Positions 191 to 63,063 of a stretch of 64,000 bases of DNA are shown here, one piece after another. The notes under the pieces were generated by a model. That model made no database searches and had not been told where the DNA came from. It saw nothing but the letters and a program-made list of their open reading frames with translations. The stretch comes from an uncultured virus (IMG/VR IMGVR_UViG_3300032227_001252) (taxonomy: Duplodnaviria > Heunggongvirae > Uroviricota > Caudoviricetes): IMG/VR virus record IMGVR_UViG_3300032227_001252, one strand, 5' to 3'. The position numbers and the translations under genes are program-made. Numbering within the stretch: position 1 is the stretch's first letter; each line of letters begins with the position of its first letter.

Positions 191-670
191 ATGCGGCGAA
201 ACCCCGACTACACCTGCTCCGTCTGCGGCGCGACCTTCCCCAGTAGGTCGCAGCTCAAGAGCCACGCCTACAAGGAACACGAGGTGTACGTCACCGCGGG
301 GAAAGCCCCGACCAGTGTGCTCTACAGCGGTCCGCGGTGGAAGTGCTCCACGTGCGGGGAGGCGTTCTACACGAAGGCTGAACTGTCGAAGCACATGGAT
401 CAGTACGCTAGGCGGTCGGCTGCGAACGCGACGCATGAGTACTTGGCAGAGGTTGCCCGGCGGCAGGCCGCGTACGAGCGCGCGCAGGAAGAACTCATGC
501 GGAGGCAGCGCGCCGCTGCCGTTCAGGAGCGCAGTGTGTCTACCCAGCGCGCGCCCCAGAGAACGGGCGACAAGGGCGGCGCCAATGACATCGTGGTGTT
601 GGCGACGTTGGCTATGCTCGCCGGCGGGCTCATGCTCGCGAATGATCGCAAGAAGGCAAAGAAGAAGTAG
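191..670 (+). CDS. C2H2 zinc-finger protein with C-terminal membrane anchor, starts M-RRNP
   Basis: CSVCGATFPSRSQLKSHAYKEH is a canonical C-x2-C-x3-F-x5-L-x2-H-x4-H finger; second finger CSTCGEAFYTKAELSKH lacks the last His; hydrophobic IVVLATLAMLAGGLMLA followed by DRKKAKKK. Confidence 0.75.
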   Translation: MRRNPDYTCSVCGATFPSRSQLKSHAYKEHEVYVTAGKAPTSVLYSGPRWKCSTCGEAFYTKAELSKHMDQYARRSAANATHEYLAEVARRQAAYERAQEELMRRQRAAAVQERSVSTQRAPQRTGDKGGANDIVVLATLAMLAGGLMLANDRKKAKKK

Positions 671-41076: not shown

Positions 41077-41152
41077 GGGGGATTAGCTCAGCTGGGAGAG
41101 CGCGAGCTTTGCAAGCTCGATGTCATCGGTTCGATCCCGATATCCTCCACCA
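41077..41152 (+). tRNA. tRNA-Ala(TGC)
   Basis: Cloverleaf, G3:U70 pair, loop TTTGCAA, CCA end. Confidence 0.95.
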
Positions 41153-41160
41153 CTTCAAGC

Positions 41161-41235
<75 letters not shown>

Positions 41236-41239
41236 GTAC

Positions 41240-41313
41240 AGGGGCGTCGCCAAGCGGTAAGGCAACAGGTTCTGACCCTGTGACCGTAGGTTCGAATCCT
41301 TCCGCCCCTACCA
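41240..41313 (+). tRNA. tRNA-Gln(CTG)
   Basis: AGGGGCG/CGCCCCT acceptor, ACAGG-TTCTGAC-CCTGT, CCA end. Confidence 0.92.
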
Positions 41314-42064: not shown

Positions 42065-42550
42065 CTACTTCCACTGCTCGAGTGAGAGCGCGTGCTGAGA
42101 CCAGAACTTCCGCGCACTCTCCACGTCGCGGTTGCTCGGGTCGTCCGGGTGCTGCGGCGCGAGGGGCCCTCCGTATACGGTAAAGAGGACGATCTTGCTC
42201 GGGTCGGCCTGATCGGGCATCCCCAGAGCCTGAACGTAGTTGACCGGGCGTGTAGGCCAGGAGACCACACGGTCGGCCCAAGGGCGGTCGCCGCGAGGAC
42301 GGTAGCTCACCGCCGACTCGGGCACCGGAGCGTCTCCCGATGCAGGTCCGTAGAGCGCGTTACGAACAGAGCCGAGGGCTCGCGGAAGTTGGATCGTTTT
42401 GATGAAGAAGGTCTTGGGGTCGTCCGCTGCAATCTGCGCCTGGATGTAGGCCATCTGCTCGGGCTTGATGCCGTGGTCAGCGTGGTAGACCGTAAAACTG
42501 GACGGGTTACGACGGAGGCGCGCAGTGGTGCGAAGAAGAGGCAGGCTCAT
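42065..42550 (-). CDS. hypothetical protein with MSLPLL...LRRNP leader
   Basis: AAGGAG RBS; FTVYGGPLAP...FWSQHAL. Confidence 0.7.
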   Translation of the reverse strand: MSLPLLRTTARLRRNPSSFTVYHADHGIKPEQMAYIQAQIAADDPKTFFIKTIQLPRALGSVRNALYGPASGDAPVPESAVSYRPRGDRPWADRVVSWPTRPVNYVQALGMPDQADPSKIVLFTVYGGPLAPQHPDDPSNRDVESARKFWSQHALSLEQWK

Positions 42551-42577: not shown

Positions 42578-43765
42578 TCAACGCTCTGCCCGCTTGCGCA
42601 GCATGGCCAGACCGCGATCCGCGGTGAGAGTGAGTGTGGCACGCGCAGCACGCACTGCGTTCTCGAGCGCGGCCTCCCGAAGCTGCGACCAGACCTGCTG
42701 GTAGGCTCCTACATTCTCGAAGGCACTCTCCACCGCACGAAGAAAGCGCTGCCAGTCTCTGGACTCCGCCGCGTGCATGATCTCGCGGGCGTCGTAGTCC
42801 ACCTGATCTGCCATGCTCTGCTTGACCTTACCAACGTACGCCCGGCGCTCCTCAACCGTTTCTTTCCAGGTCGGGTTCGACTTCACCGCCGGGCGGTAGG
42901 CCTTGTTGATGTAGTCGAGGTCGAACCAGAAGGAGAGGATGTTCGAGCCCGCGGGGGTGTCCCAGTAGTAGCTCCCCCGCTCGTTGTTGTGGCTGTAGTC
43001 AGCGCCGTATCCGCCGCGCTGCACCCCGACGGGATTGACACCCTCTGACTGAAGGTACTCCACCGCAGTCCTCTTGAACGCATCGCGTCCGGGTCCAGTC
43101 TTGATGGCGGTGTAGGTCTTGTTGGGGTGAATGTGAACCCAGTACCCGTAGTTGGAGGTGGGGGCGCGGGGGTTCTTCTTCCGGCTGACAGCGGTATCTG
43201 GGTACTGGCCGCTCTGCGCCCAGGTGCCCCAGCGGATCGGGCGGCTCAAGCCAGGGCCGTTGATCCAGTAGTCGTTCCTCTTAGGCGAGAGCGTGGCCGA
43301 GAAGATGTCACCGTTAGGGAGGCGAATCGCAGCCATCTTTTGGTGGTCGCGGCCTGCTGTGATGTCTTCAGCACCTCGGGTATCGACCTTCTCGAGGACG
43401 AGGAACACCGCCAGCGCCTGCAGGGCCGCGTCGGACTCCTCGAACCAAACGGTCTTGGGCTTCTTCGCCTCCACGCCCGTCTTCAGGTCGCGGTAGACGG
43501 TGTGGCCGGTCTGGCCCATTCGCCGGAGTTCGGAGTGGAACGGAGGCGCTTGAAAGCCAAAGTCCTTCAAAGGGTTCTCTTCGTACTTCACGACGCGACC
43601 CTTCGGGCTCTGGCTCCCGAGCATGGTGAGCGAGCCGTCAGCGCCTCGGCGGTACGCGAAGACGTGAACCCCGTGAGCGCGCGCCAGCTCGCGGGCCTTG
43701 TTCAGGTCAGGGATTTCAGCGCCCTTCGGCGTGACGCCAGGAACGGCGTAGACGACGTTGCTCAC
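42578..43765 (-). CDS. multi-module hypothetical protein punctuated by NP motifs
   Basis: EENP, RKKNP and KSNP separate blocks of about 60-130 aa. Confidence 0.7.
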   Translation of the reverse strand: MSNVVYAVPGVTPKGAEIPDLNKARELARAHGVHVFAYRRGADGSLTMLGSQSPKGRVVKYEENPLKDFGFQAPPFHSELRRMGQTGHTVYRDLKTGVEAKKPKTVWFEESDAALQALAVFLVLEKVDTRGAEDITAGRDHQKMAAIRLPNGDIFSATLSPKRNDYWINGPGLSRPIRWGTWAQSGQYPDTAVSRKKNPRAPTSNYGYWVHIHPNKTYTAIKTGPGRDAFKRTAVEYLQSEGVNPVGVQRGGYGADYSHNNERGSYYWDTPAGSNILSFWFDLDYINKAYRPAVKSNPTWKETVEERRAYVGKVKQSMADQVDYDAREIMHAAESRDWQRFLRAVESAFENVGAYQQVWSQLREAALENAVRAARATLTLTADRGLAMLRKRAER

Positions 43766-43777
43766 ATCACACCCCGA

Positions 43778-44266
43778 CTAGAAGTTGTACCCGAACGGGT
43801 TGCCCTTGATGCGAACCGCTTCGAAGAGACCCTCGGGCGCGGCCGTGCGGGACTTCGGGGTGTAACCACGGAGCTTCCCGGCCTTCTCATCGGCCCACGC
43901 CACGCGGATGGCCTCGCCCGGGTACCAGCCGAGTTCTTGCATCAGGTCGCGAGCGTAGCTCATGACCCGGCGCGAACGCTCGACGTGAGCCTTGCGCTTG
44001 TCCGACCAGCCGGCCTCACGCTGACGCTTCGCGTCACCCTTCTGACGCTTGTAGAGCGTGCCCTGCTTGGTGACGAGGCGGCCTTCAGCGTCGCGTGCAC
44101 GGGCAGCACGAGCCGCCGGCGTGGAAGCCGCAGCCGCAGCTGCATCGGGGTTCACGCGGTTGATCGCGCGGCGGAGAAGCTCGCGGCTCGCAGCGGGGTT
44201 GCCACGGGCTGCGCTGTGCTCCAGCTCCTGATGGGACATGTTGAACGGGTTCGAGCGCATCCGCAT
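43778..44266 (-). CDS. highly basic small protein with four [RK]xNP motifs
   Basis: RSNP, RGNP, RVNP, KGNP; Arg/Lys/Ala-rich. Confidence 0.7.
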   Translation of the reverse strand: MRMRSNPFNMSHQELEHSAARGNPAASRELLRRAINRVNPDAAAAAASTPAARAARARDAEGRLVTKQGTLYKRQKGDAKRQREAGWSDKRKAHVERSRRVMSYARDLMQELGWYPGEAIRVAWADEKAGKLRGYTPKSRTAAPEGLFEAVRIKGNPFGYNF

Positions 44267-44268
44267 GA

Positions 44269-44706
44269 CTACCCCTTACGAGCCTTCTGGGCCTTCTGGA
44301 TGTTGATGGCAGCGGCAGCCACGAAGGCAGTGCCCTGCAGGAAAGAAACGGCACGAAGCAGCATCTGGTCGCTGGGGAGCTTCCACGCGGCGTAGTAGTT
44401 CACACCGGCTGCGACACCCATCCCACCTGCCCAGGTGTAGTAGTAGGTCGACGTGCGGCCCGGCGTGGGGATCGTGAGGCCCTGCCAGTACCCGACCGCG
44501 GCCCCGCGGGCGTTGCTGATCGCTTCCCCGGCCTGCTCACGAACCATCTGCCCGAGCGGGTTCGCGGGGTTCATCATGACGTCAGCGATTGCCGTCGTCA
44601 CGGTGTCCTGAATGAACTCCTGCGTCTCCATGGAAGGAGCAGCAAGGGGAAGCCCCGAAGGGGTGTCCACCGCAGCGAGTGCGGTGGTGGTGTCGTCAGC
44701 GGCCAC
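44269..44706 (-). CDS. putative membrane protein
   Basis: GAGG RBS before GTG 44706; two hydrophobic C-terminal segments and a basic tail. Confidence 0.55.
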   Translation of the reverse strand: MAADDTTTALAAVDTPSGLPLAAPSMETQEFIQDTVTTAIADVMMNPANPLGQMVREQAGEAISNARGAAVGYWQGLTIPTPGRTSTYYYTWAGGMGVAAGVNYYAAWKLPSDQMLLRAVSFLQGTAFVAAAAINIQKAQKARKG

Positions 44707-45925
44707 GGTTGTACCTCGTCTTGGGACTGTATCCGCGGCGAACAGGCCCGCGTGGGTTGTTGAGCTTTCCGAAGATGGCGGCCATGTCGTCGTAGGCACT
44801 GTCTTCGCCGCTCGCGAACGCAGGCGCGGACACCGGGACTGGTTCCGGGGATCGGGAGGATGCCGCAGATCGCGCCTGGCGCTCACCCGTGAGCCCGAGG
44901 AGTTCGTCGAGGTCGCTCAGGTCGGAGCTGCCCGCGGTTATCTCAGGGGGCGCGGTCTGCTCTGGGTCTCGGGGAGACGTCTCGCCCCAAATGCTGCGGG
45001 TGGACGCGAACATGCGGCGCTGCTCCTCGGTAGGTGCAGCAGCTTCGCCACGCCCACGACGGCTCAAGCGCGGTTCTGCCTTCAATGTCTGCAGACGGCG
45101 ACGGCGCTGATCCTGCTCCGCGTACCGGAAGGCGCGAAGCTCAGCGACCTGCGTCTCTCGCAGTTTGGTCTCTGCGTGGATGAACTCCTCCATGAAGGAG
45201 TCTGGCTCCACATAGGTCTTGGCGACCCGCTTCTGGGCGGTCTTCCCCGCACCCTCCGTCCAGGTGGTCACCATGTGGAGGCCGTCGAAGTATTCCCACG
45301 CCCCGCGAAGCTCCAGGCTCACGTCCGCCCACGACTCGATCGTCTCGATGTAGTCAGCGTGCCTCTCGGGGTGGTTCGCGGAGTTGATGCCGAAGATCGC
45401 CTGAGCTGCCGATTTCATCACGTCGCGAGCCGCGGCCACATCATCGCTCACGACGGCCCAGCCGAAGCCTTTCGGCAGGGGCGGCGCTTCGGGAACTTCA
45501 GACACGGCGACGTGCGGCATAGAAACCGGCACCACCGTCTTGCAGAGGGCGGTGATGTAGACCAGGTAGGCGTCCATGACGTTCGAGAAAGCGCGGGAAC
45601 GCATCTCAACGACGCTCATGATGTCGCCGATGCCCGACATCGCCGTGTAGTCGGCGATCGTCGTGACCTTGGGTCCGCCGCCCCACCGCGTGTAGGGCTG
45701 CTTGATCGTGCCCTGCTCTTTGCCGTAGAGGCTCTCACGCGGCCCCTTGAACATGTCCCAGAAGTGGCGTGCTGCTGCCTGAACAGCGGGATCATCGGGC
45801 GAGAGACACCGCGTCCGCGGATCAGTGATGCACTTCTTGGCCCTCTCAAACGTGAGATAGCGCTCCGACGTACGTTGAACGTCGTGGCTCAAGTACGCGG
45901 CAGGGTTCTTCCGGCGGACGGGCAT
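44696..45925 (-). CDS. hypothetical protein with MPVRRKNP leader
   Basis: 409-aa ORF; NP motifs near both termini. Confidence 0.65.
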   Translation of the reverse strand: MPVRRKNPAAYLSHDVQRTSERYLTFERAKKCITDPRTRCLSPDDPAVQAAARHFWDMFKGPRESLYGKEQGTIKQPYTRWGGGPKVTTIADYTAMSGIGDIMSVVEMRSRAFSNVMDAYLVYITALCKTVVPVSMPHVAVSEVPEAPPLPKGFGWAVVSDDVAAARDVMKSAAQAIFGINSANHPERHADYIETIESWADVSLELRGAWEYFDGLHMVTTWTEGAGKTAQKRVAKTYVEPDSFMEEFIHAETKLRETQVAELRAFRYAEQDQRRRRLQTLKAEPRLSRRGRGEAAAPTEEQRRMFASTRSIWGETSPRDPEQTAPPEITAGSSDLSDLDELLGLTGERQARSAASSRSPEPVPVSAPAFASGEDSAYDDMAAIFGKLNNPRGPVRRGYSPKTRYNRGR

Positions 45926-47190: not shown

Positions 47191-47474
47191 CAGTGCTCCG
47201 ATTCGTCTTCCTTGGCGATGATCCGCTCGATCTTCGCCTCCAGCGCGGAGACGGCGGTCTTGAGGTCGACGAGCAGCTCCATCATACGCTCCAGCGTGAC
47301 CTCCTCTCGGGAGCGGAGAGCATCTGCACGCTGCGATGCCGACACGGGCGCGCGGCGGGGAGACGTCGGCTTCCTTGCCTTGCGACGCTCCACTTCAGCG
47401 TGGGCATCCAGATCGCCCTCCTGCATGAGGGCAGCCAGTTCGGTAGAGCTCATCCGTAAGTACTTGATTTTCAT
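47190..47474 (-). CDS. hypothetical coiled-coil protein
   Basis: Coupled ORF; heptad-rich C-terminus. Confidence 0.55.
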   Translation of the reverse strand: MKIKYLRMSSTELAALMQEGDLDAHAEVERRKARKPTSPRRAPVSASQRADALRSREEVTLERMMELLVDLKTAVSALEAKIERIIAKEDESEH

Positions 47475-48097
47475 CCATCCCTCCGCGCGCGAGCGTAGCG
47501 GGCATTCACGGCGTTCCAGTTGATGATGCCCCAGATCGCCTTGACGTAGTCAGCCCGCTTGTTCTGGTACTTCAAGTAGTACGCGTGCTCCCACACGTCC
47601 ACGACAAGGAGGGGGATGGCGTTGGGAAGCCAGCCGTTCTGGTGGTTCTCGATCGAGAGGATGAAGGAGCGCTGGAAGTCGGGAGACCAGGCCAACACCG
47701 CCCACCCGCTGCCCCGCGTGGCGATGGCGATGTCGCTGAACTCCTCCATGAACATCTGCGGGCTTCCGAAGTCGCGCACGATGAGCTGGTGAAGCGCCTG
47801 AGACGGCATCCCTCCCTGGCCGGGCTTGCACAGGTTTTCCCAGTACATCTTGTGGAGGACAGCGCCGGAACCGTTGAACGCCACCGACTGCGCGAGGGAG
47901 AGGCGCATGCGTCGGCGGGTAGCGTCGGGGATCTTCTCGCCTTCCCGCGCACGCGCCAGCGAATCCAGGGCTTCGTCGAGACCGGCGTAGTACGACTCTT
48001 CGTGCCCGTTGTGGTGGATGTCGACGGTCTTGGCGTCGATCACCGGTTCCAGCATCGTGGCGGGGTACGGGAGCGGCGGCATGCGGTAGTTAGCCAT
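47471..48097 (-). CDS. sod: Fe/Mn superoxide dismutase
   Basis: PPLPY...LEP, HHNGH, FNGSG..LHKMYWENL, GSGW, DVWEHAYYLKYQN. Confidence 0.95.
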   Translation of the reverse strand: MANYRMPPLPYPATMLEPVIDAKTVDIHHNGHEESYYAGLDEALDSLARAREGEKIPDATRRRMRLSLAQSVAFNGSGAVLHKMYWENLCKPGQGGMPSQALHQLIVRDFGSPQMFMEEFSDIAIATRGSGWAVLAWSPDFQRSFILSIENHQNGWLPNAIPLLVVDVWEHAYYLKYQNKRADYVKAIWGIINWNAVNARYARARRDG

Positions 48098-48410
48098 TGA
48101 GGGCACCGTGGCGAAGGAGGTGGGCGTTCAGCTCCATCCAGGCGGACGGCAGCGCGAACAAGGGGCAGTTGAAGGTAGAGATGGCGTGGCCCTCTACCCA
48201 AGAGACGAGTCCAGCAGGGAGCGCATCTGCCCGAAGAAGAGGCGCAGCAGGGAGGACACCCCGAAGCGCCCTCCACACCTCGCCGGACTTCATCACGGCG
48301 ACCCGGGTGTGCGTGCCGCGGTCTGCGTACTCGACCACTACGACAGGACTGTCCAGCCCTTCGTGCCGCAGGACGCAGGTAGCGGTGGGGTCGATTCGGA
48401 AGAAGGTCAT
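48090..48410 (-). CDS. hypothetical protein
   Basis: ORF from MTFFRID; fills the gap. Confidence 0.5.
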   Translation of the reverse strand: MTFFRIDPTATCVLRHEGLDSPVVVVEYADRGTHTRVAVMKSGEVWRALRGVLPAAPLLRADALPAGLVSWVEGHAISTFNCPLFALPSAWMELNAHLLRHGALNG

Positions 48411-48418
48411 GCAGTGCT

Positions 48419-49021
48419 CTAACCCAGGCGCAGTGCCGCGAGCACTCGGCGCCATGCTTCGCCTTGAGACGCGGGATCGCCCGTTCGGACGCGGATCTCG
48501 ATGCCGAGCTTCCCGTTGATGCCCGATACGGTCGCACGCACTCCGAGGACGGCGTCCATGTCCGCCACCCGACTCCAGATGAGACTCGAGGGCGGAGGCA
48601 CGAGAGCGAGGTAGCCGCACCCGTTGGTGGCCACAACCTCGCTCTGAAAGACCTGCGCGCTCGGCCAGGGGATGCTGTAGTACTGATCCTTGAAGCGGAC
48701 TCTGTGGCCTGACTCCACGTCCACGAAGATCATCCCTGTCGTCCGGATCGCCTCAACGTCCTGCAGCAGGTCACGGTAGACCGTGCGCGCCCAGACCCTG
48801 TCCTGCCAGTGACCCGAGCAGGAGGGCATCGTCGGTACCCCGAGGGTGTGCAGTTTCGCGACAAGGAGCCGCAACTGCGGATCGACCGTGCTGTAATCTC
48901 GGAGGAACGCAGGCGGGCGAAGAGGTTCTGGTCGGTGGTAGAACCACCGCGAGCCCCTCCGCTCGGGCTTGTACCACCTCTTTGAAGCAAAGCCTTCGGG
49001 CGGCACAAAACTCGCGTCCAT
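48419..49021 (-). CDS. hypothetical protein with TxxSCSGH motif
   Basis: VDPQLRLLVAKLHTLGVPTMPSCSGH (resembles the start of TYW3-like folds). Confidence 0.55.
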   Translation of the reverse strand: MDASFVPPEGFASKRWYKPERRGSRWFYHRPEPLRPPAFLRDYSTVDPQLRLLVAKLHTLGVPTMPSCSGHWQDRVWARTVYRDLLQDVEAIRTTGMIFVDVESGHRVRFKDQYYSIPWPSAQVFQSEVVATNGCGYLALVPPPSSLIWSRVADMDAVLGVRATVSGINGKLGIEIRVRTGDPASQGEAWRRVLAALRLG

Positions 49022-49713
49022 CAACGCTCCAGACGGGGCATACCGGGAAGAGGCTTGCCCTTCTTCGCCTGTTCGCGGGCGTACCAGGTTGCCGCGATTC
49101 CCGCCACACAAAGAACCACAAGGCGCCCGAACCACGGGCTCACGGTCTCAGTCTCGACGACGTCATTCGACTTCGGCATCGAGCCTGACATCGACCACGC
49201 CATCGCTCCCGCCTCATCAACCGGCAACCCGTCGATGCCCTGCGGGAACAGATCAGACGCCGTGTTCAGGCGCTTGATGACCTCGAAGTGCTTGCCGTTG
49301 GGCCGCTCGATGCGGTGCACCCACACGTCCATGATGGAGCGCCAGTCGTAGGCTCCGGCGATCTCCTTCTTGGTGGCGGGGCTGTCCGTGATCGCCTTCA
49401 GGATTCGCTCGGTGTTCAGCTGGGCATCCTTGCGCGAGTCTCCGCCCGGGTACTGAAACCCCGTCGGCATCCCGACACCCAGACCGCCCTTCTTGTTGAG
49501 CATGAACAGGCCCGCGGAGTCCTCCTTCGAGGACTTCAGCGTTGCCGTCGGAACGAGCTTGCTCTCCGCGTACGCGTTCACGACGGCCATCGCCGCAAAG
49601 TCGCGGCTGTAACCGGCGTTCACGAAGGCGTTCTCGATCAGGTCGACCATCTCGAGCTGTGCATCCAGCAGCTTCTTGCGCATGTAGAAGCGCAGGGGGT
49701 ATTGGCGGCTCAT
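49021..49713 (-). CDS. phage-tail-lysozyme / lytic-transglycosylase-like protein with C-terminal TM
   Basis: AMAVVNAYAES, DSAGLFML, RIERP; TM LVVLCVAGIAATWYA followed by a basic tail. Confidence 0.65.
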   Translation of the reverse strand: MSRQYPLRFYMRKKLLDAQLEMVDLIENAFVNAGYSRDFAAMAVVNAYAESKLVPTATLKSSKEDSAGLFMLNKKGGLGVGMPTGFQYPGGDSRKDAQLNTERILKAITDSPATKKEIAGAYDWRSIMDVWVHRIERPNGKHFEVIKRLNTASDLFPQGIDGLPVDEAGAMAWSMSGSMPKSNDVVETETVSPWFGRLVVLCVAGIAATWYAREQAKKGKPLPGMPRLER

Positions 49714-49958
49714 GTGCGGATCCCGACGTGCTTTTCAGCCTTGTAGATCTTGTACCCGACCGAGAGCAGGGTGCTGAGTGCACCGAAGAGGATGGCCGTG
49801 CGAACCTCCTTCTTCACGCTCACGTTCGGGTCGATGTGCGACACGATGTAGGCAGCTGCGCCGGACGACACAGCCCCGGTCACCAGGGCGATGGCGAGCA
49901 GGTTCTGCACCTCTGGCTTCGACAGCATCGCCGTGCCCTGCTGCGAGATGAGACTCAT
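49710..49958 (-). CDS. small two-TM membrane protein
   Basis: Two hydrophobic helices. Confidence 0.55.
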   Translation of the reverse strand: MSLISQQGTAMLSKPEVQNLLAIALVTGAVSSGAAAYIVSHIDPNVSVKKEVRTAILFGALSTLLSVGYKIYKAEKHVGIRT

Positions 49959-53522: not shown

Positions 53523-54377
53523 TCAATCGGCGTCAGGTCGTGTCAGGTGTGCCATGACCGCCCGCTTGAGCGAGGTGGCGCTCGACCTGCTGATCCCCAT
53601 CCGCTTGGCGATGTCCGTGACGCTGAACCCGCGGTTGTGCTGCTCCACGAACTTCCGCTCCATGGCGTTCAACTCGGCCGTGGCCGCGCGCACGGCGGCT
53701 GCTGCTTGAGCCTGAACTATTGCCGTCTCGTTCTCGTCGTGGCTCGTGCTCGCGGTGATGGTCTCCCCAACGGTCTGACCATCCTCTTCGCCGTCATCTC
53801 CGCTCGTACTGGCGTCCATGGAGATGGCTGCCCCGCGGCGAGCAGCGTCGCTGACCTCGATGATCTCCTCGAGCGTGTGCCTGCGGCCCGTAAGCTGCGT
53901 GAGGAAGTCAGCAAGTTCTTGCTTACTTTCGGGCTTGCGGCCTTGCTGCTTCTCAAAGGCTTTGAGCCAGCCCTTCATCTTGGCCTTCGCCTCAATGCGG
54001 CCGCGGTCGTCGCTGTCCGTGATCGAACCCTTCGCAGCCATGTCGGCGTGGTAGCGAGCGTACGAGAGGAACCCCGAACCTCGTTTCGGGTCGTACTTCT
54101 TCGCCTCCGCCAGGACGCGCATCATGACGTTCGCACCGATGTCCTCGCTGCGCAGCCGCCTCTCGTACTCGTTCCCGAGCATGACCGCGATGGCCTCGAC
54201 TGTCTGCTGGTTCGGCGCGACGCCCTGCTTCGCGGCCGCTTCGGCGGCCTCCTTTGCCCGCTCGATCGCAGCCTTCGGCTGCGGGATCGGGTTCTGGCGA
54301 ACGGGGCGGCGCGTGACGAAGACGAACTTGCCCCCGCGGCGAGAACAGCGAAGAGCTACGGGTGCGCGCGGTGTCAT
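53523..54377 (-). CDS. sigma70-family sigma factor, second copy, with RQNP leader
   Basis: AKKYDPKRGSGFLSYA (region 2), QGRKP...ISMDA (region 3), FSVTDIAKRMGISRS (region 4). Confidence 0.8.
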   Translation of the reverse strand: MTPRAPVALRCSRRGGKFVFVTRRPVRQNPIPQPKAAIERAKEAAEAAAKQGVAPNQQTVEAIAVMLGNEYERRLRSEDIGANVMMRVLAEAKKYDPKRGSGFLSYARYHADMAAKGSITDSDDRGRIEAKAKMKGWLKAFEKQQGRKPESKQELADFLTQLTGRRHTLEEIIEVSDAARRGAAISMDASTSGDDGEEDGQTVGETITASTSHDENETAIVQAQAAAAVRAATAELNAMERKFVEQHNRGFSVTDIAKRMGISRSSATSLKRAVMAHLTRPDAD

Positions 54378-54378
54378 G

Positions 54379-56277
54379 TCAGATCTCCAGCTGGTAGCCC
54401 TTCAGCATATCGAGGTTGGCGTCGATGTACTCCGTGAGCGCAGCCTCGAGCTTCGGGACGAACGGCAGGTCGGACAGGAGCTTCACCCCGTGCTCGCGCC
54501 CCTTCTTGTACAGGACGCGGTACGGGACGAGTTCTGCCATCGCCTGCAGTCCGTCGTCCACCCACCCCTCGCGGCACGCCTTGGTGTCGATCACATACGG
54601 CATCCACTCTGACACTGTGCTGACCGTCTTCCCGCGCAAGTGCTGTGGGTAGTGCCGCAGCGTATGGTCAGCCCACACCAGAGCCATTCGGAGAGCCTCG
54701 TACGCAGCTTCGACGCGATCGGTCACGTACCCGATCTTCGCCATCTCGCGCTTCGCTGCGCTGGTGATGTAGGCGCCCGTGTACGTTCTCGTGTCGGGCA
54801 TCATCCTGTCGCCGAGACGGTGAAGGATCGTGTGCGCAGTGTAGGGCGAGATCCGTGTCCGCCTCTCGTCACCGAAGAGGTCTGTCACCGACTCGTGAAA
54901 CCCCTCCACCGTATGCGGAGACGCCAGAAGGGTCACCACACCGGGCGTTCCTCGTTCGATGCGATTCTTCCACTCATACGCGGGGTTCCAGTCGACGACG
55001 AGGCGGATGTTGGGGATGACGTCCTTTCCCTGCGCCTCGATGCGGTCGAGAGCGGCCTTGCTCTGGAAGAAGCGAAGGTGGCGGCTCCCTACCTCGCGGC
55101 CTGTAGGCGCTCCCGAGACCTTCACTTCGATCGGGTTCTGCTTCTGGCGCATCGACTCTATCTTCGCGCGGACTGCATCGGGCAGGACAGCAAACTGCTT
55201 CTTGTCAGCGGTCCACGAGGTCTTGCCGCCGACGACGAGCGAGTTCACGCGTGCGACAGCCCAGTTCTGGGCGGTCGCGCCCGGGCGGTGACCGCCGCTC
55301 TTCCAGGCCGCGAGCCCCTTCGCGAACGACGCCCGCAGGGCCTCGGCGAAAGCCTCGACCTCGCGTGCGGGTGCGCGGCCAGAGTAGAAGCGGAGGACAC
55401 GGGCCGCCATGTCTTCGGCGTTGCCCCGCCACTCGATCCCGCGCTTCTTCGCCTCGGTCGTGTACTTCGACTGCTTCACGAGGCCCATCTTGCGGGCGGC
55501 GCGGTCCGTGGGGAGCTCAGAGTAGTCGCCCCGCTTGTAAGCGTCTCGCGACTCCGTGAGCTCGCGGATCCTTTGCTGCTGCAGAGCAGGCGGAAGCCCC
55601 GCCAGGTAGCGCTCAGGGATGTGCCGCCCCGCGAGGTCGACAGGGTTGCTCATCACTTCCCCGATGTCGAGGATGTACGCGGGGTCGCCGTCACCCGCAT
55701 CGGCCACCTTGGTGAACCCGAGCCGGGTGAGCCAGGCGTACGCGCGTTCTCGCTTGTCGTTGCCCCAGCCGACCTTCAGACGAACTGGCTTGAGGGGCCG
55801 CCCGGCAACCGGGGTCACAGATCGAGCTCCCGAAATCGTCCACTTGATGTGCTCGAGCACCCGACGAAGGAACCCGATGCTGCCGGCTCCTGTTTCGTCG
55901 TAATGTCCGCCCTTCTTATCGGACCCGCTCAGCCATCGAAGAACCTTGTTCTCCGCTACCCCCCAACTCTTTCCGGACTGGAGCGTGACCACGAGATTGC
56001 GCTGTTTGTAGTCTTCGAACTCTTCGTTATCCCAGAACGACACCCCGACCCAGTGCTTCCCGCTCCCGAGCGCCCGGAAGATCCGGATCTGGAAGTCGTA
56101 CACACCGGTCAGCTTCTGGATCTCACGGGCAAACGCATCGTCCCGACTGCGCGGGGCCAGATCCTTATAGTCGGGGGTGTACTCGCGGTAGGGCGTGCGG
56201 GAGCCCTTCACCAGTTCTGGGATGGGGTTGGCGACGTACGCGACTCCGCTCACGATCGGGATGACGGCCTTGTACAT
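54379..56277 (-). CDS. three-module protein; middle module DUF5824-like
   Basis: Modules start after VANP, MSNP and KQNP; middle has IPERY, SKYT, GLAAWKSGGHRPGATAQNWAVARVNS...GKT..TADK. Confidence 0.7.
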   Translation of the reverse strand: MYKAVIPIVSGVAYVANPIPELVKGSRTPYREYTPDYKDLAPRSRDDAFAREIQKLTGVYDFQIRIFRALGSGKHWVGVSFWDNEEFEDYKQRNLVVTLQSGKSWGVAENKVLRWLSGSDKKGGHYDETGAGSIGFLRRVLEHIKWTISGARSVTPVAGRPLKPVRLKVGWGNDKRERAYAWLTRLGFTKVADAGDGDPAYILDIGEVMSNPVDLAGRHIPERYLAGLPPALQQQRIRELTESRDAYKRGDYSELPTDRAARKMGLVKQSKYTTEAKKRGIEWRGNAEDMAARVLRFYSGRAPAREVEAFAEALRASFAKGLAAWKSGGHRPGATAQNWAVARVNSLVVGGKTSWTADKKQFAVLPDAVRAKIESMRQKQNPIEVKVSGAPTGREVGSRHLRFFQSKAALDRIEAQGKDVIPNIRLVVDWNPAYEWKNRIERGTPGVVTLLASPHTVEGFHESVTDLFGDERRTRISPYTAHTILHRLGDRMMPDTRTYTGAYITSAAKREMAKIGYVTDRVEAAYEALRMALVWADHTLRHYPQHLRGKTVSTVSEWMPYVIDTKACREGWVDDGLQAMAELVPYRVLYKKGREHGVKLLSDLPFVPKLEAALTEYIDANLDMLKGYQLEI

Positions 56278-56289
56278 GATTGCTCTGCC

Positions 56290-57126
56290 TCAGATGTAGA
56301 AGACGTAGTTGCCCCTGCTCAGGCCGATGTTGAGGGCGTCGATGTAGGCGCGCATGATGGCGTCGCTGCGGTGACGCAGAGCAAGTAGAACCGGCGGCCA
56401 TTCCACATTGACACCGTTTACGACGAGGGGCGCGTCTGGGTTGAAGCCCCATTTGCCGGTCTTAGCACGAAGGGCGAACAGGTCCGCATTCATCTGCGCA
56501 GAGTTTGCCAGAACTCCCATTCTGCCAGCAGCGGTGTCCACCCCCGCGCTGATGACAGCGGCCATGGCTCGGACTCTGTCGGGAGCGAGGCCTCGGCGAA
56601 CTAGTTGACCACCCAAACGGTAGCTCTGGGTGTCGTACGCGATCATCGTATCGTACAACTTCGAGAACGGCAGTTCACGGCGGAAGTGTTCTGGGATCAC
56701 CTCCCGCCAAGAAGGGCCCCCGCCAGTTCCCACAGAGTCCCACAGCCGATGGAGGACCGTGAATGGCGTGATGGGGGCTATGCGAGCCGGGTCTCCCCTC
56801 TCTCCGCGCACGTCAAGCACGCCGGGCGGGTGTTCGGGAACGAAGGTGAAGGCAACATTGTCGTAGCTCTTACGGGCTATGTCCTGGGCCTCTCTGCGAC
56901 CTGCCGCGTAGACAGGATCGTAGATGTCAGGCGGCCATCGCTCCCCGGCCGGAAGAACTATTACAAGGAGCTTCAGGTTGAACGGCACGCCCCGCAGTTC
57001 CTTCGAGTAGATCTCGAACGCGTTCCGGTTCACTAGTGGCCTGTGAAACGACAGAGTGCGCGCCGGCGAGATTGAGCCCTGAACGGTGAGATCTGTCAGG
57101 GGGTTGTGACGAGAGTGCGTCCGCAT
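56290..57126 (-). CDS. hypothetical protein, paralog of the last module of 54379..56277
   Basis: RHNP leader; TPFTVLHRLWD vs TAHTILHRLGD; DTAAGRMG vs DTKACREG; YID near the C-terminus in both. Confidence 0.7.
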   Translation of the reverse strand: MRTHSRHNPLTDLTVQGSISPARTLSFHRPLVNRNAFEIYSKELRGVPFNLKLLVIVLPAGERWPPDIYDPVYAAGRREAQDIARKSYDNVAFTFVPEHPPGVLDVRGERGDPARIAPITPFTVLHRLWDSVGTGGGPSWREVIPEHFRRELPFSKLYDTMIAYDTQSYRLGGQLVRRGLAPDRVRAMAAVISAGVDTAAGRMGVLANSAQMNADLFALRAKTGKWGFNPDAPLVVNGVNVEWPPVLLALRHRSDAIMRAYIDALNIGLSRGNYVFYI

Positions 57127-57131
57127 GGTGT

Positions 57132-59234
57132 CTACATGTCGTTGTGGGAGACGCGGACAGGTCGGCCGTCCCAGCGCTTCACCGACGTCCAGTTCTCGTT
57201 CGAGCCGAGATTTCCGTCCGCGCCGACCATCATGCGGAAGGGCGCCGTACCGCGACGGCTGTCATAGCCCTCAGCAGAACGGTCGGGCACCACAGTCCCG
57301 TTGTAGAGATTGCCCGAGTCGTAGCGCTTCCCGATCGCCTTCACCATCACGCTGGCCGGCGAGATGGACACCACCTCGTAAAAGTCCGCGGTGTCGATGG
57401 CGATGTTCTTCTTCACCACGACGTCGCCGACCTTGTACGCGTGCTGGATGGGCCGAGCAGCCTGCTCCTGAATCCGCTGACGGACAAAGCCCGTCGGGGC
57501 CGGGGCCGGGCGGGGGGCTTCGGACGGCGCCGGACGGGGGCCAGGGGAGACAGCAGACGGCGAGACACGAAGGCCCCGGCGCTCGGCCTTGCGGACCATC
57601 TCCTCGGCCTTTTCGGGCTGGTAGCACCACTGCGGCGTACCGCTGCCCGTGAGGACAGGAGTGCCGTCGTCGTTGTAGATGTAGAAGCAGACCTTCCCCC
57701 ACTGATCGCGGCCGGACTTGTGGTAGGGGTTCTCGAGATCCTTCTTCTTTCTCGACATGATCAGCTCCTGCAAATCGCGGATGTTGTAATTGCCCACATC
57801 CGTCTTGATGTAGGGCATGTACCCTGCACTCTTCGCTGCAAGTGCAGCCTCGAGAGCGGCTTCAGGATCTGCACCCGAATAATCCTCGATGTGAGGGTAC
57901 CGCACAGCGAGCACTACGCCCCGCCGCGGGTGTAGCACCCTGAACCTCGATGGTTCGGGCGGCTGATAGGGGTCTGGCTGCGCCATGGCGACCTTCCTGA
58001 CAGGGTTGGAGCGAATGAGTTCTGCGAAGCGCTTCGAGCCGCTCCAGCGGGCACCGGGGTCTCCGCCCCAGTTGAGCCACGACCAGTACCGCTTCCCGCT
58101 CTTGCGGGCGTACTGGTCTGACATGCGATCCTGCTTCGTCTTGCGATCGAAGTACATGCGCATGCGGCGGAGAGCTGCGTCAGAGATCGAAGGAGAGATG
58201 GCAAGCTGGATGGCGCGTGCGACCCCGATGAAGTCGTAGCCGCCGTAGTTGTTCTGGTGGGAGAGCCGGATGCCCTCCATCGCGGCCTCGCGCACGTCTT
58301 CGGGGACAGCGTGACCGCCGGGCTGCTCCTGCCCTGCTGCGGCTTCCGAGGACACGGCCCCGCGGTTGTTGAGGTTCAGAGCCAGGAGAACGCTGTGGGC
58401 GTCGGGCGCGGCCGGCGGAAGTTCGTCCGACGTGGCTCCTGCTGCCTTTAGCTTCATGCGACTGCTGTTGAGCTGAGCCCGCCAGTCAGAGGGCATCTTG
58501 CGGAGCAGACTGTTGATCTCCGACACGTTCGCCTTGATGGAGGCGGGGTTCTTCTTCCTCATGCCGTGAACGACGTCGGAGCCCACAAGTGCCGCCGCGC
58601 CGACGCGGAGGCCCCCTGATGCAGTCAACTTGGCGTACTCCCCGACCCCGCGGCCCAGGGCGGAAGCGGTGGCCGAAACACCCTTGGCGGCCTTCACTTC
58701 GTCCCGCATCCCGCGCAGGGCCGCGGCCTTCTCCTTCTCGACGCGGATTGCTTCGGGGAGGGCGTCGATCACCATCATGACCTCGCCCACGACGGGAATG
58801 GCCTTGGTCCCAGCCTTCGCGGCAACCTTGGCGCCGGCCTTCGCGGCCGTCTTCCCCGCCACTTTCGTGGCGGCCTTCGAACCGCCAGCCTGAAAGAGCT
58901 TGCGCAGCAGACCCACGCGCTTCTGCGCCTTTCGACCTGCTGCTGCGAGGTCTCGAGCGGTCAGTTCTTCGTCTGGGTTCCTGCGCATGCTTGCCCCCTG
59001 AAACTTCTGGAGGCCAAGTGCCGCCGCGCTGCGGATGGTGTCGCGCCCTGGCATCTCGTCCACTTCAACTTCGACTGTCTGCTCAGGCTTCGCCCCGTCG
59101 CGCACACGCACGGACCATCCGCGGCGACCGCGGGAAGCGACGACGTAGCCCGTCGGAAGCTCCGGCGGGTAGTGCCATTCCCCGTAGTTCGGCCCGGCCT
59201 TTACCGTCGGGCGCCCGAGAGGCTTCAAGGGCAT
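57132..59234 (-). CDS. multi-module protein punctuated by four NP motifs
   Basis: RRNP, KKNP, RSNP, LENP; includes a GVARAIQLA...RMRMYFDR...WLNWGG module of a kind seen in phage head-associated proteins. Confidence 0.7.
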   Translation of the reverse strand: MPLKPLGRPTVKAGPNYGEWHYPPELPTGYVVASRGRRGWSVRVRDGAKPEQTVEVEVDEMPGRDTIRSAAALGLQKFQGASMRRNPDEELTARDLAAAGRKAQKRVGLLRKLFQAGGSKAATKVAGKTAAKAGAKVAAKAGTKAIPVVGEVMMVIDALPEAIRVEKEKAAALRGMRDEVKAAKGVSATASALGRGVGEYAKLTASGGLRVGAAALVGSDVVHGMRKKNPASIKANVSEINSLLRKMPSDWRAQLNSSRMKLKAAGATSDELPPAAPDAHSVLLALNLNNRGAVSSEAAAGQEQPGGHAVPEDVREAAMEGIRLSHQNNYGGYDFIGVARAIQLAISPSISDAALRRMRMYFDRKTKQDRMSDQYARKSGKRYWSWLNWGGDPGARWSGSKRFAELIRSNPVRKVAMAQPDPYQPPEPSRFRVLHPRRGVVLAVRYPHIEDYSGADPEAALEAALAAKSAGYMPYIKTDVGNYNIRDLQELIMSRKKKDLENPYHKSGRDQWGKVCFYIYNDDGTPVLTGSGTPQWCYQPEKAEEMVRKAERRGLRVSPSAVSPGPRPAPSEAPRPAPAPTGFVRQRIQEQAARPIQHAYKVGDVVVKKNIAIDTADFYEVVSISPASVMVKAIGKRYDSGNLYNGTVVPDRSAEGYDSRRGTAPFRMMVGADGNLGSNENWTSVKRWDGRPVRVSHNDM

Positions 59235-59240: not shown

Positions 59241-59777
59241 CTACCCGTAGTAGGGCTTCGGCGCCGCGTACGGGCCGCGAGGCCCGCTGAAACCGGGAGG
59301 AGTGAGGCCGAGAACCTGGATGCCCGTCATGCGGCGAAGCTCTGCGCTGCGGTGCAGGTCACGAATGTGCTGGCCGAGAGCCATCACGAACGCGTAGTCG
59401 GGATCGCGGCGTCCGTAGAGCAGGATGCCGTGGTGCTTCCCGTCACGAGCGATGAACATGATGTCCCCGTTCGTGTTCAGGGAGAGCTTGCCGTCCTTGC
59501 AGGAGACGACCACGGCCTTGGTGTCGTCGATGGCCTTGGGTCCGCGGGCGGGGCGCTTCGCATCGGCGGCCTCCGCCGTTGCTACGTCCTTCTTCGCCTT
59601 CGAGATCTTCTCCACGATCAGCTTGGCCTTGGCCTCGCTGAAGCAGAACCTCTCGCCCGAGGGGCCCGTCGCGACCGTACCGTCATCGTTGAAGATGAGG
59701 TAGCACTGCGCGTTCTGGCTCGCGGGAATGTGAGACAGTCCGCCGGGCGTGTGACGGTAGTAGGGGTTGTAGCGCAC
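59241..59777 (-). CDS. hypothetical protein with MRYNP start, related to a module of 57132..59234
   Basis: CYLIFNDDGT...FCFSEAKAKLIV vs CFYIYNDDGT...WCYQPEKAEEMV. Confidence 0.65.
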   Translation of the reverse strand: MRYNPYYRHTPGGLSHIPASQNAQCYLIFNDDGTVATGPSGERFCFSEAKAKLIVEKISKAKKDVATAEAADAKRPARGPKAIDDTKAVVVSCKDGKLSLNTNGDIMFIARDGKHHGILLYGRRDPDYAFVMALGQHIRDLHRSAELRRMTGIQVLGLTPPGFSGPRGPYAAPKPYYG

Positions 59778-60192: not shown

Positions 60193-61119
60193 CTACTCCT
60201 TGTTGCGGAGGAAGGCCCAGTACACCCCGCCTGCCACTGCGATCGTGCCGAGGCCTACAGACGGCCAGAACCACCACGCGTCAGTGAGGCTGGCTTCCTG
60301 CTGGAGCCCGGGCACAGACACATCTGTCGTCTCGGGGGCCGTCGGGAGCGACGGGGTCGGCGTGTACGACCGTGCCGGCGCAGAGCCCGACCTGAGCCGG
60401 CCATTCACGAAGTCGTTGTTGAGGTTCGCGGCCACCGCTGCGTACTTGGCGTCGCTCTTCGAGAACGTCTTGCCACCCGTCACCACGGTGCCGGACGCGT
60501 CTATCTTGTAGGTGTAGGTCCCGTCCGTCCAGGTCTTGCCCAGCAGCGCCGAGTTCAACAAGCCGGATGCTGCAGCCGAGGAGCCGCTCTCACGGCGGAG
60601 GGCCGCTTCTGCCTCGTCACGGGCCTGACGCTTGACGTCTTCCAGCTCGTACTCTCGTGCGAGCTGCTTGATGGCCTCCTTCTCCTTGGAGTTGAAGAAG
60701 TACATCTTGCTCAGGTTCGCGTTCCAGTAGGCGATCGCCTTCTTGGCGTCGATCTTGTCCTTGGACGGGCCGTACTTGAGCACGTACGCGAGGTTGTTCG
60801 AGATGAAGTCGCCGATCGAGAAGGAGTTCGTGACGGACAGGTAGCGCAGCTGCTCGGCCGCCTTCGTTCCTACGGCGTCGTTGTCGGTGAACGACACCAA
60901 GATCCGCAACTTCGGCGCGACATAGGCCGCCAGGGCGTTGCGGTCTTTGACGTTCATGAAGTCAGCGATGGCCCGCTTCGCGAGATCGCTCTTGTCGTAG
61001 GTCTGACGCGCTACGCTGATCGCGTCAGAAACCGACGTCGAGAGAGCGCCGAGGGGTGCGGTGACACCATACACCGACTCGATCGAAGAGCGCGATGCGG
61101 GCTGGAACGTGGGGGTCAT
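60193..61119 (-). CDS. hypothetical protein with C-terminal TM anchor
   Basis: WWFWPSVGLGTIAVAGGVYWAFL-RNKE after a Pro/Thr linker. Confidence 0.65.
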   Translation of the reverse strand: MTPTFQPASRSSIESVYGVTAPLGALSTSVSDAISVARQTYDKSDLAKRAIADFMNVKDRNALAAYVAPKLRILVSFTDNDAVGTKAAEQLRYLSVTNSFSIGDFISNNLAYVLKYGPSKDKIDAKKAIAYWNANLSKMYFFNSKEKEAIKQLAREYELEDVKRQARDEAEAALRRESGSSAAASGLLNSALLGKTWTDGTYTYKIDASGTVVTGGKTFSKSDAKYAAVAANLNNDFVNGRLRSGSAPARSYTPTPSLPTAPETTDVSVPGLQQEASLTDAWWFWPSVGLGTIAVAGGVYWAFLRNKE

Positions 61120-62093
61120 GCGATCCTCTGACGGAAGACGGTCTTTGCGAGGTACGCTTCCTGCTTGTCTGCAAGAGCGGGCATCGGCTTCTTCTTGGCG
61201 GGGTTGTAGCCTTCAGAGACCGGGTTGGACTTCACCTGACGGATGACGCGCTTGACGCCCCAGATGGCCACTCCCGCGAGCAGCACGCCACCCACGATCT
61301 TGACCCCGAGCGAGACCATCTCTCCAGTTGCCTGAGCCGTGCAGTAGCCAGGGATGTACGACCGCCACGTGTCCTCACACGGGACGTCCGGTGCCTTCTC
61401 CGGCGGAGCCTTCTCAACATCCTGACGCGCGGTGGTCTGCTTCTGCGCTTCATCGACGCGAGCCGCTACAGCCCTTCGGTCAGTACCACGGCGCAGCTGC
61501 TCGAGCGCGTCAGCGGCAACTTCAGTCGTGCCGCCGCGGCGCTTGATGGCCTTCTCCAGCAGAGCGTACGCAGAGTCGTAGGTCGACTTGATAGAGCTGT
61601 TGCGGTTCGCTGCGTCTACGTCCACGCCTGCAGTCAGACCACTCTCGATGCGCTCTTTTGCTGCATCCCGCAAGCTCGTGTCATTGAGCGCGAGGAACCC
61701 AACAGCCAGCCAGTACCCCGTCTTGAGCAGCGAGGCTGCGTCGTTACTCGCGAGCGTGGTGAAGGTGCTGTAGTTGGGAAACGCCTCGATGTCCGAGTAC
61801 GAACGCCCTGCCGTGATCATGTTCGACACAGCGTCGTAGTGGTTGTAGGTGGAGACGTTCGCCTTCCGGTCCGCGAGGTCGGAGCGGGTGTAGCGCACGC
61901 CAGGGATCCACTTCGTGGACAGCCCATACGGGTCGCCGTAGGCCGATCCGACGAACTGAGGGTTCGCCGTGACGTACCGCTGCTGGAACCCGAAGCTGTC
62001 CGAGGGGTACATCACCTGTGCAGGGTACGTCGCGAGGGGAACGCCCCCGCGCTGGAAGTACCCGGTGCTGTAGAAGACTGCCCGGCTGGCCAT
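61116..62093 (-). CDS. hypothetical protein with C-proximal TM followed by KSNP
   Basis: TAATG overlap; IVGGVLLAGVAIWGV-KRVIRQVKSNP. Confidence 0.65.
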   Translation of the reverse strand: MASRAVFYSTGYFQRGGVPLATYPAQVMYPSDSFGFQQRYVTANPQFVGSAYGDPYGLSTKWIPGVRYTRSDLADRKANVSTYNHYDAVSNMITAGRSYSDIEAFPNYSTFTTLASNDAASLLKTGYWLAVGFLALNDTSLRDAAKERIESGLTAGVDVDAANRNSSIKSTYDSAYALLEKAIKRRGGTTEVAADALEQLRRGTDRRAVAARVDEAQKQTTARQDVEKAPPEKAPDVPCEDTWRSYIPGYCTAQATGEMVSLGVKIVGGVLLAGVAIWGVKRVIRQVKSNPVSEGYNPAKKKPMPALADKQEAYLAKTVFRQRIA

Positions 62094-62347
62094 TACCCCT
62101 CCTTCGTCGCCGCTCGGAAGCGGCGCACCTGGTACTGCATGTAGGAGGACGCCTGATTCAGACGGTCGTTCGCAGTCGCGATCTGGTAGTGAACCCACTG
62201 CGGCAGGTCGTCGTTGTCCTCGAGAGCTTCCGCGAGTGCGGCTGCATTCTTCGCCATCTGCTCAAGGTACTGCTTCGCCATCCGGCCCTGGAGCGAGTTG
62301 CTCTTGGTCGGGCCGTAGTCGAAGTGGCGTCCTGTCTGGAACTTCAT
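62093..62347 (-). CDS. small hypothetical protein
   Basis: LEDNDDLPQWVHYQIATA.D.L......Y helical motif of a kind seen in large-phage proteins. Confidence 0.6.
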   Translation of the reverse strand: MKFQTGRHFDYGPTKSNSLQGRMAKQYLEQMAKNAAALAEALEDNDDLPQWVHYQIATANDRLNQASSYMQYQVRRFRAATKEG

Positions 62348-62409
62348 GGGGGCAGCCTCACCCACGGAGAGTAGCCGCACCTGACCTACGGGGGCTGCTT
62401 CGAAGTGCT

Positions 62410-62754
62410 CTACGCCCGCTTGATGGAGAACTCGATGCGGCCATCATCCCACGCGTTGAGGACCTCGAGGTACGCGCGACCGTGCGTGGAGAGATCCGAC
62501 TCGACCGCTGCGAGAGCTTCGTCGAGGGAACTGAAGGACTGGCGCCCGACGTAGATGTCTGCATCGTGGGGAGTCATCCGCTTGATCTTGTCCCTGGCGC
62601 CCGCCCACGCGAACAACTGAGGTTCTTCAGGGACATCCCATGTCGGAGTCTCGTCGGGGCCCGCACCCATGCGCTGTTCGACCCCAACCACCACGAAGGT
62701 GTTCGGCGTTAGAGCCGGATTGCGCCGCAGCACGGTGGGGAGGGGCAGCGCCAT
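62410..62754 (-). CDS. hypothetical protein with MALPLPTVLRRNP leader
   Basis: GAGGA RBS; leader nearly identical to that of the neighbour. Confidence 0.7.
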   Translation of the reverse strand: MALPLPTVLRRNPALTPNTFVVVGVEQRMGAGPDETPTWDVPEEPQLFAWAGARDKIKRMTPHDADIYVGRQSFSSLDEALAAVESDLSTHGRAYLEVLNAWDDGRIEFSIKRA

Positions 62755-62760
62755 GGTTCC

Positions 62761-63063
62761 TCAGCGGAGCAGGGTCGGTTCGGAGAGCGACGTGTTCCCC
62801 AGACCCGCACTCCGGCCGTTGGAGAACAGGCGCTTCACTTCGGATGCCGGGAGGACTCCCTGCTTGTATGTGACAGGCCGCCCATCCGTGATCAGCGTGG
62901 CTGATCCGTCAGCGTTCATCACGAACGTCAGGTAGAAGTAGGTGTTGGACTGGCCCATGTCAGAGAGAGAAATGTAGGACGACAACGCCTGAAACTTCTG
63001 ACCCGGAGCAGGGAAGTGCATCGCGGGGTTGCGGCGCAGGACGGTGAGGAGACGTAGTGCCAT
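62761..63063 (-). CDS. hypothetical protein with MALRLLTVLRRNP leader
   Basis: Leader shared with 62410..62754; body unrelated. Confidence 0.7.
   Translation of the reverse strand: MALRLLTVLRRNPAMHFPAPGQKFQALSSYISLSDMGQSNTYFYLTFVMNADGSATLITDGRPVTYKQGVLPASEVKRLFSNGRSAGLGNTSLSEPTLLR

Follow-up and report, generated by a model that had tools for sequence, protein, structure and literature searches.

In phage T4, the capsid targeting sequence (CTS) directs a protein into the prohead core, after which the head protease cuts the sequence off. In Staphylococcus phage 80alpha, the capsid and scaffold proteins carry a shared N-terminal leader and are cut by the ribosomal-protein-L27 protease Prp. The Asn-Pro dipeptide is itself familiar from self-cleaving proteins, which include the switch proteins of flagellar and type III export and an outer-capsid protein of reovirus. 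To our knowledge, the Asn-Pro self-cleavers need a folded catalytic context, and spontaneous cleavage at Asn-Pro in free peptides is very slow.

In the T-even phages, internal proteins of diverse kinds bear a conserved targeting leader, and the proteins themselves differ strongly from one related phage to another (PMC3012670). In giant phages, a single protease motif is found at many sites in the head proteins, mostly at the end of N-terminal propeptides, some of which are 20-24 residues long, and several of the head substrates have multiple sites; the prohead protease gp245 of SPN3US and its homologs in PhiKZ and 201phi2-1 cut after A-x-E (PMC10052503). The polyvalent proteins of Iyer et al. 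(2017) are described as harboring many shuffled domains and as being deployed early after DNA entry, and some of them are packaged in the head and proteolytically processed, with SNF2-type ATPases and cell-wall enzymes common among them (PMC5512222). The word "linker" occurs 0 times in the main text of that paper, and a conserved inter-domain delimiter may not be described there (PMC5512222).

In the phage lineage described here, a short leader ending in Asn-Pro stands in front of unrelated proteins, and the basic-Asn-Pro motif with which it ends recurs between the modules of fused proteins.

The phage and its leader-bearing genes

The window is the whole stretch of DNA that was analyzed, 64,000 nucleotides of an uncultured virus of the Caudoviricetes (IMG/VR record IMGVR_UViG_3300032227_001252). 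Its G+C content is 64%, and the minus strand carries nearly all of its genes. Among their products, Pfam and PHROGs identify tail-fiber-like proteins and Sak4-like, Dda-like, and SNF2 proteins, and a sigma factor, an IF-1 homolog, lysozymes, and four tRNAs are also encoded. The window is part of a large tailed phage without a close named relative. A blastn search with 6 kb of it returned no named phage relative, and the best tblastn match of its DNA polymerase, at 28.5% identity, is in Virus Rctr197k. The product of gene A, described below, is also present on a contig of 178,212 bp, and the phage genome is therefore at least that long. Searches of IMG/VR with single proteins found nothing, and those with alignments found just distant leaderless relatives or an 8-kb piece without the tagged block.

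Several further features of the window are recorded here in their own right. The DNA polymerase belongs to family A and has an N-terminal uracil-DNA glycosylase domain (Pfam UDG, residues 26-207) within the same 926-aa ORF (18147-20927, minus strand). An actin-like protein of 331 aa (11166-12158, minus strand), with tail-fiber-like and SbcC-like genes as its neighbors, is matched end to end by Pfam Volactin (E 2.5e-72). The IF-1 homolog is 72 aa long (30780-30995, minus strand; Pfam eIF-1a, E 1.2e-21). Three of the tRNAs, Ala(TGC)-Gly(GCC)-Gln(CTG), form a cluster at 41077-41313 on the plus strand, opposite to the genes around it, and a tRNA-Asn(GTT), worth a mention beside an Asn-Pro motif, stands alone at 1765-1841 (minus strand). 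Also encoded are a Fe/Mn superoxide dismutase (47471-48106) and a chitosanase-like glycoside hydrolase of family 46 (37556-38347), both on the minus strand, and a J-domain protein (23222-24151).

A first-pass annotation of the window had drawn attention to three minus-strand genes that open with closely similar leaders ending in RRNP, and the ORF starts match that description exactly. Gene A (62761..63063, 100 aa) and gene B (62410..62754, 114 aa) each begin with a 13-aa leader, encoded at 63025-63063 and 62716-62754, respectively, and a conserved small gene (62093-62380) follows directly downstream of B. Gene C (42065..42550, 161 aa) begins with a 16-aa leader encoded at 42503-42550. In pairwise BLASTP, A and B are identical at 12 of residues 1-15 (E 3e-5 for the single pair), and the alignments of B with C and of A with C are confined to residues 1-17. 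The likeness between the three proteins is thus limited to about the first 15 residues, and past the leader BLASTP finds no credible similarity between the bodies, which were rightly called unrelated; the idea that they are hidden paralogs was dropped because BLASTP is blank outside the leader. The body of A is an ORFan, in that protein A alone came back from a word-indexed search across 5.8e9 proteins (E<=10).

An SD-like purine-rich stretch (aggaa, gaggaa, or aaggag) is found upstream of each of the three ATGs, which rules out mis-called starts. Between the leaders of A and B, 7 synonymous and 2 non-synonymous differences are found among 14 codons, and at the 17 motif sites in the window the Arg and Pro codons are varied and follow ordinary genome usage. 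The conservation is therefore at the level of the peptide and not of the DNA, and the leader is a translated peptide maintained by selection. A DNA repeat or promoter is ruled out by the same synonymous differences and varied motif codons.

The body of gene C belongs to a phage family that is widespread and has an H-x-D-H motif, and a homolog search with C returned 99 proteins. Its distant homologs are leaderless and begin 1-3 residues ahead of the first beta-strand of the fold, and its closest homologs have N-terminal leaders of varying sequence that end in Asn-Pro, often with two NP units. When 15 leader-bearing orthologs are aligned, N15 and P16 are the sole invariant columns before F19, the first invariant residue of the body. 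In a tree of 93 rows, made by a quick method, 49 rows are without an N-terminal extension, and the NP leaders, under a loose label that covers any NP up to 32 residues upstream and takes in a few non-basic cases, are concentrated in one 21-row clade (18 of 21 with NP), with a few outside it. The AlphaFold2 model of C (mean pLDDT 90.6) has residues 1-17 as a low-pLDDT coil before a confident fold, for which Foldseek found no match in the PDB at E<=0.001.

An exhaustive search with B returned B itself, two homologs, and a weak match to a repeat protein. One homolog (P0103) has a similar leader, and the other (P0102) begins at the equivalent of B residue 16 and is leaderless. The alignments and the model of C both indicate that the leader has been added ahead of bodies that are unrelated to one another, and the view that it is portable and rides on different cargo gains support from the leaderless homologs of B and C and from the coil in the model of C. 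The homologs and the coil likewise uphold the proposal that RRNP ends the leader and lies outside any domain.

The motif in other proteins and at module joints

The leaders of A, B, and C are examples of a broader motif that is specific to this lineage, hydrophobic-[RK]-[RKS]-Asn-Pro. Its frequency was assessed over 81 ORFs of the window, which come from a simple GC3-based caller and are not a curated annotation, with 300 shuffles as the control. The pattern [RK][RKS]NP falls within the first 35 aa of 6 of the 81 proteins, against a shuffle mean of 0.10 and maximum of 2, and a relaxed pattern is found near the N-terminus of 9 proteins where 0.19 are expected. Overall there are 13 strict sites, against a shuffle mean of 0.81 and maximum of 4. 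These ORFs contain 84 NP dipeptides, where 41.1 are expected, with a density of 12.4 per 1000 residues at positions 1-15 versus 3.5 beyond position 90. In the residues ahead of an N-terminal NP, acidic residues are depleted (0.12 vs 0.66 per 6 residues) and basic residues are enriched. Across 21 IMG/VR loci with distant C homologs, taken as unfiltered lists of 4-164 ORFs per locus, the relaxed motif is found in the first 35 aa of 4 ORFs, 1 in each of 4 loci and none in the other 17, which is consistent with a motif that is specific to this lineage. Among the literature matches listed for RRNP in phages there is no description of the motif, and those matches concern the RRNPP quorum-sensing receptors.

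The other proteins that bear the motif at or near their N-termini are of several kinds. A C2H2 zinc-finger protein of 159 aa (191..670, plus strand) starts M-RRNP, and the remainder are encoded on the minus strand. A 162-aa protein (43778..44266) starts MRMRSNP and has three more NP sites, one of them 6 residues from its C-terminus; a 409-aa protein (44696..45925) starts MPVRRKNP and has a second NP 19 residues from its C-terminus; a 278-aa protein (56290..57126) starts MRTHSRHNP; and a 178-aa protein (59241..59777) starts (V/M)RYNP. The sigma-like/HTH protein (53523..54377, 284 aa), with weak matches to Sigma70_r2, Sigma70_r4, and HTH, has a basic leader of 30 aa that ends in RQNP. Degenerate N-termini ending in NP are found on a 940-aa SNF2-like protein, a lysozyme, a Dda-like helicase, and an RdgC-like protein, with that of the SNF2-type ATPase being non-basic; these are candidate members of the set. 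A 632-aa protein with a DUF5824 domain (54379-56277, minus strand; E 3.6e-14) has an NP at residue 17 of its N-terminus. Two paralogous neighbors of about 345 aa (3615-4658 and 4660-5694, both minus strand) have similar N-termini, with NP at residues 3-4 in one and VP there in the other.

NP is also found a few residues ahead of several C-termini. In a 360-aa protein (61116..62198, minus strand), KSNP (61221-61232) comes after a hydrophobic helix, and another NP lies close to the C-terminus. More generally, a hydrophobic helix and basic tail form the C-terminus of the zinc-finger protein (191-670, plus strand), two lysozymes (46528-47190 and 49021-49713), and three uncharacterized proteins (60193-61119, 61116-62198, and 49710-49958), with these last five all on the minus strand, and in the 220-aa lysozyme of these two a KNP site lies immediately before the C-terminal hydrophobic helix. 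A further 178-aa protein (26545-27081, minus strand) ends exactly in KINP before its stop codon, as would fit a module that retained its downstream joint.

In relatives of the window, the motif is also found at the joints between the modules of fused proteins. On a 2.4-kb contig (L078), a 390-aa ORF reads leader-C-KKNP-module-RKNP-module-RRNP-module, and at these internal joints the Met and the hydrophobic part are lost while the basic-NP is kept. In another protein (P0006), the third L078 module comes first, behind its own NP-ending leader, and is followed by RRNP and then C. The order C-KKNP-second module is found in P0002, P0003, and the locus L024. In one sublineage, Asn is followed by Tyr or Arg and not by Pro, which makes Asn the most constant position.

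The window harbors fusions of this type as well. A multi-module protein of 700 aa (57132..59234, minus strand) has three internal motif sites, at residues 84-87 (58974-58985), 227-230 (58545-58556), and 408-411 (58002-58013), and a Met directly precedes the first two. The stretch between the second and third sites is residues 232-411, to which all 11 of the 11 short homologs of the protein map. Some of these homologs stand by themselves, and others follow a short leader or are joined to different modules through additional NP sites. Modeled alone, this module gives a pLDDT of 92.4 and a pTM of 0.90, and Foldseek found no match to it in the PDB at E<=0.001. A 395-aa protein (42578..43765, minus strand) has an internal KKNP (43169-43180) and KSNP (42872-42883), and the part that follows the NP at its residue 64 is found again in P0115, likewise behind an NP joint. 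This part corresponds to one of the modules to which the short homologs of the 700-aa protein are fused.

The genes that carry leaders turn over between relatives, which are short metagenome contigs with simple gene calls made here. Two loci, L024 and L025, are syntenic with the window, with an SNF2 helicase that is 63-65% identical and several matching small genes, and beside the C gene they have leader-bearing small proteins without a counterpart in the window. In L037, the leader is on a 258-aa protein with weak similarity to the 278-aa protein of the window. The C fusion of L078 lies directly upstream of a homolog of the conserved small gene downstream of B (68% identity by tblastn, L078:2212-2421 vs window 62147-62341), and this minus-strand gene (62093..62380) anchors a variable slot that holds A and B in the window and the C-containing four-module fusion in L078. 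Leaders are alike within one genome, as in A and B of the window, two of L024, and two of L025. The L078 contig is the closest genome-collection relative of gene C and is binned into a Phycisphaeraceae (Planctomycetota) MAG, which for a contig of 2.4 kb is a weak hint of the host.

Proposed processing of the motif and rival readings

The presence of the motif at N-termini and at every module joint, with drifting flanks, is what a protease site predicts. The add-on nature of the leader, its position at joints, and the precedents outlined above together favor a propeptide and processing site for a predicted protease, possibly doubling as a T4-CTS-like virion address, and we hold this reading tentatively, at a little short of an even chance. 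The leader would be the N-terminal form of a junction motif, a short hydrophobic or basic run followed by [RK]-[RKS]-Asn-Pro, and would form a disordered, detachable peptide kept by selection ahead of independently folding modules. In this phage group, a module encoded as its own gene begins with Met, leader, and NP, and in an in-frame fusion of modules there is one basic-NP linker per joint. We infer that basic-Asn-Pro acts as the processing site and that a dedicated protease, most likely encoded by the phage and possibly its head-maturation protease, would cut at or beside Asn-Pro. Such cutting would strip proteins of their N-terminal leaders, which would act as short propeptides, and would release the individual modules of fused proteins. 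In leaders like those of A, B, and C, the longer hydrophobic-basic part may also direct the precursor to where it is processed, much as the CTS does in T4, and the products may be packaged into virions.

Some observations count against processing. No protease was found in the 64-kb window with Pfam, PHROGs, or Pfam at E<=1, a crude regex scan of the window for common catalytic motifs gave nothing convincing, and no capsid, portal, scaffold, or terminase genes were recognized in it. The tagged block (42-64 kb) shares its strand with the replication genes and precedes them, lying upstream, a position that looks more like an early than a late region. The NP extensions on the Dda-like helicase and RdgC-like protein would make for unusual virion cargo, leaders of 4-7 residues (MRRNP) are very short for a propeptide, and the Tyr or Arg in place of Pro in one sublineage is a further difficulty.

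An uncleaved tag would account for the same data nearly as well. Here the leader would be a linear motif that binds one common partner, such as the capsid interior or scaffold, DNA, a chaperone, or a phage-made compartment, and stays on the mature protein. We regard this as unlikely on balance but as a serious possibility, since the size and disorder of the leader are typical of linear motifs, each module retains its own copy in fusions, the likeness of leaders within a genome would suit co-evolution with a single reader, a J-domain protein is encoded in the window, and the tagged proteins include DNA- and RNA-polymerase-associated types. However, the occurrence of Pro, Tyr, or Arg after Asn sits better with a scissile bond than with the core of a binding site, exact placement at module boundaries is the prediction of a cut site, and NP a few residues before several C-termini also tells against a tag. 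A protease could be dispensed with altogether if the Asn side chain attacked its own peptide bond with succinimide formation, and the invariance of Asn as the one constant residue, together with the failure to find a protease in the window, speaks for such self-cleavage. We nonetheless consider it improbable, in that the motif sits in disordered linkers (a coil in the model of C) where known cases need a folded catalytic context, the basic residues before it suggest recognition by another molecule, and the reaction in free peptides is so slow. It has also to be asked whether the peptide has any function, since a shared coding stretch could be left as a relic where cassettes have joined or split; cassette turnover and module shuffling are real, and the Met still found before two internal sites of the 700-aa protein would suit such an origin. 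A functionless relic is nevertheless quite improbable when about half of the third codon positions have changed between the A and B leaders with the peptide kept, the motif codons vary, N and P are invariant across 15 orthologs while the flanks drift, and the L078 joints keep the basic-NP.

The first-pass annotation took RRNP to be the end of a signal peptide, while observing that the h-region of Sec and Tat signals is lacking. The latter point holds, with maximum Kyte-Doolittle means over 12 residues, within the first 50, of 0.62 (A), 1.53 (B), and 0.51 (C), and it is among the reasons why the former is not supported. Export across the cytoplasmic membrane by Sec, Tat, or another route, with removal after RRNP, has in its favor a basic N-terminus with twin arginines, the cell-wall-acting lysozymes within the block (46531-47190 and 49024-49713), and the hydrophobic C-terminal helices of several proteins. 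It would leave the internal copies of the motif at module joints without explanation, and there is no h-region after the arginines, the small-x-small site is absent, some leaders are just 4-7 residues long, and the cargo includes zinc-finger, sigma-like, and SNF2 proteins, so that we consider export extremely improbable. Pro-containing basic motifs can stall ribosomes, and Arg-Arg-Asn-Pro could on that ground slow or pause the ribosome early and tune expression, in a phage that has an IF-1 homolog and a tRNA-Asn of its own. Such an effect is very improbable for a motif that also lies deep within long proteins at domain joints, that ends 4-residue leaders too short for the exit tunnel, and that has no codon-level signature.

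The processing reading can be extended, in a form that we think rather unlikely, to a polyprotein grammar that spans the phage. Basic-Asn-Pro would be its punctuation, read by a new Asn-directed protease or by self-cleavage, so that a rapidly changing set of effector modules could be encoded as genes or as fusions in any order, with the same mature products, perhaps delivered with the DNA. The phages concerned would be of about 180 kb and possibly infect planctomycetes, as judged from the single 2.4-kb contig in the Phycisphaeraceae MAG. Were this true, tailed phages would have a code for processing and targeting that is new, and it would offer a natural toolkit with which any chosen cargo could be loaded. 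Short of that, a dual-use motif would explain how modules are shuffled between genes without loss of function. Confirmation of cleavage would establish a protease specificity that is new and give a simple tag by which foreign proteins could be packaged or released; otherwise, the motif would remain a strong handle on the common partner of about 10-20 uncharacterized phage proteins.

Comparison with described systems

The leaders resemble Sec and Tat signals in having a basic N-terminal region with paired arginines, but differ from them in lacking a hydrophobic core or signal-peptidase site, in having cargo of cytoplasmic type, and in recurring within proteins. In contrast to Tat signals, the RR is here followed by Asn-Pro and polar residues. 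With the self-cleaving Asn-Pro proteins the leaders have in common a conserved Asn-Pro, given that N15 and P16 are invariant in 15 orthologs, but the motif lies in a low-confidence coil and not in a folded context, as seen in the single model of C.

A leader common to unrelated phage proteins is also a feature of 80alpha, where removal is by one specific protease, but the 80alpha leader copies the extension of a host ribosomal protein. The polyvalent proteins are approached in the number of unrelated domains and their shuffled orders, as seen in the 390-aa ORF of L078, P0006, P0115, and the 700-aa protein, but the modules here are mostly small and without a known fold match. Pfam finds none of the polyvalent signature domains, among them a processing metallopeptidase, a DNA methylase-SNF2 dyad, and anti-restriction domains, in the multi-module proteins, and the 940-aa SNF2-like protein with its NP-ending N-terminus is separate from them.

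The head proteins of the giant phages share with the present proteins a single short motif at many sites, both N-terminal and multiple per protein, but the core here is [RK][RKS]NP and not A-x-E. No protease or head gene was seen in the window, and some of the leaders here are 4-7 residues long. The CTS of T4 is matched in two respects, in that a short N-terminal peptide is common to otherwise unrelated proteins and that the tagged genes vary between related phages (L024, L025, L037, and L078 versus the window). In contrast to T4, the tagged genes have no recognizable head genes beside them in the window, and the motif is an unrelated one, basic-basic-Asn-Pro, that doubles as an internal joint.

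This kind of system, in which a shared removable leader is found on unrelated phage proteins, is thus already known, and what is new is the motif, the way it serves both as a leader and as a joint between modules, and the phage lineage in which it is found. T4 and the giant phages load and mature their head cargo by means of shared leaders, and the leaders described here would represent a different code.
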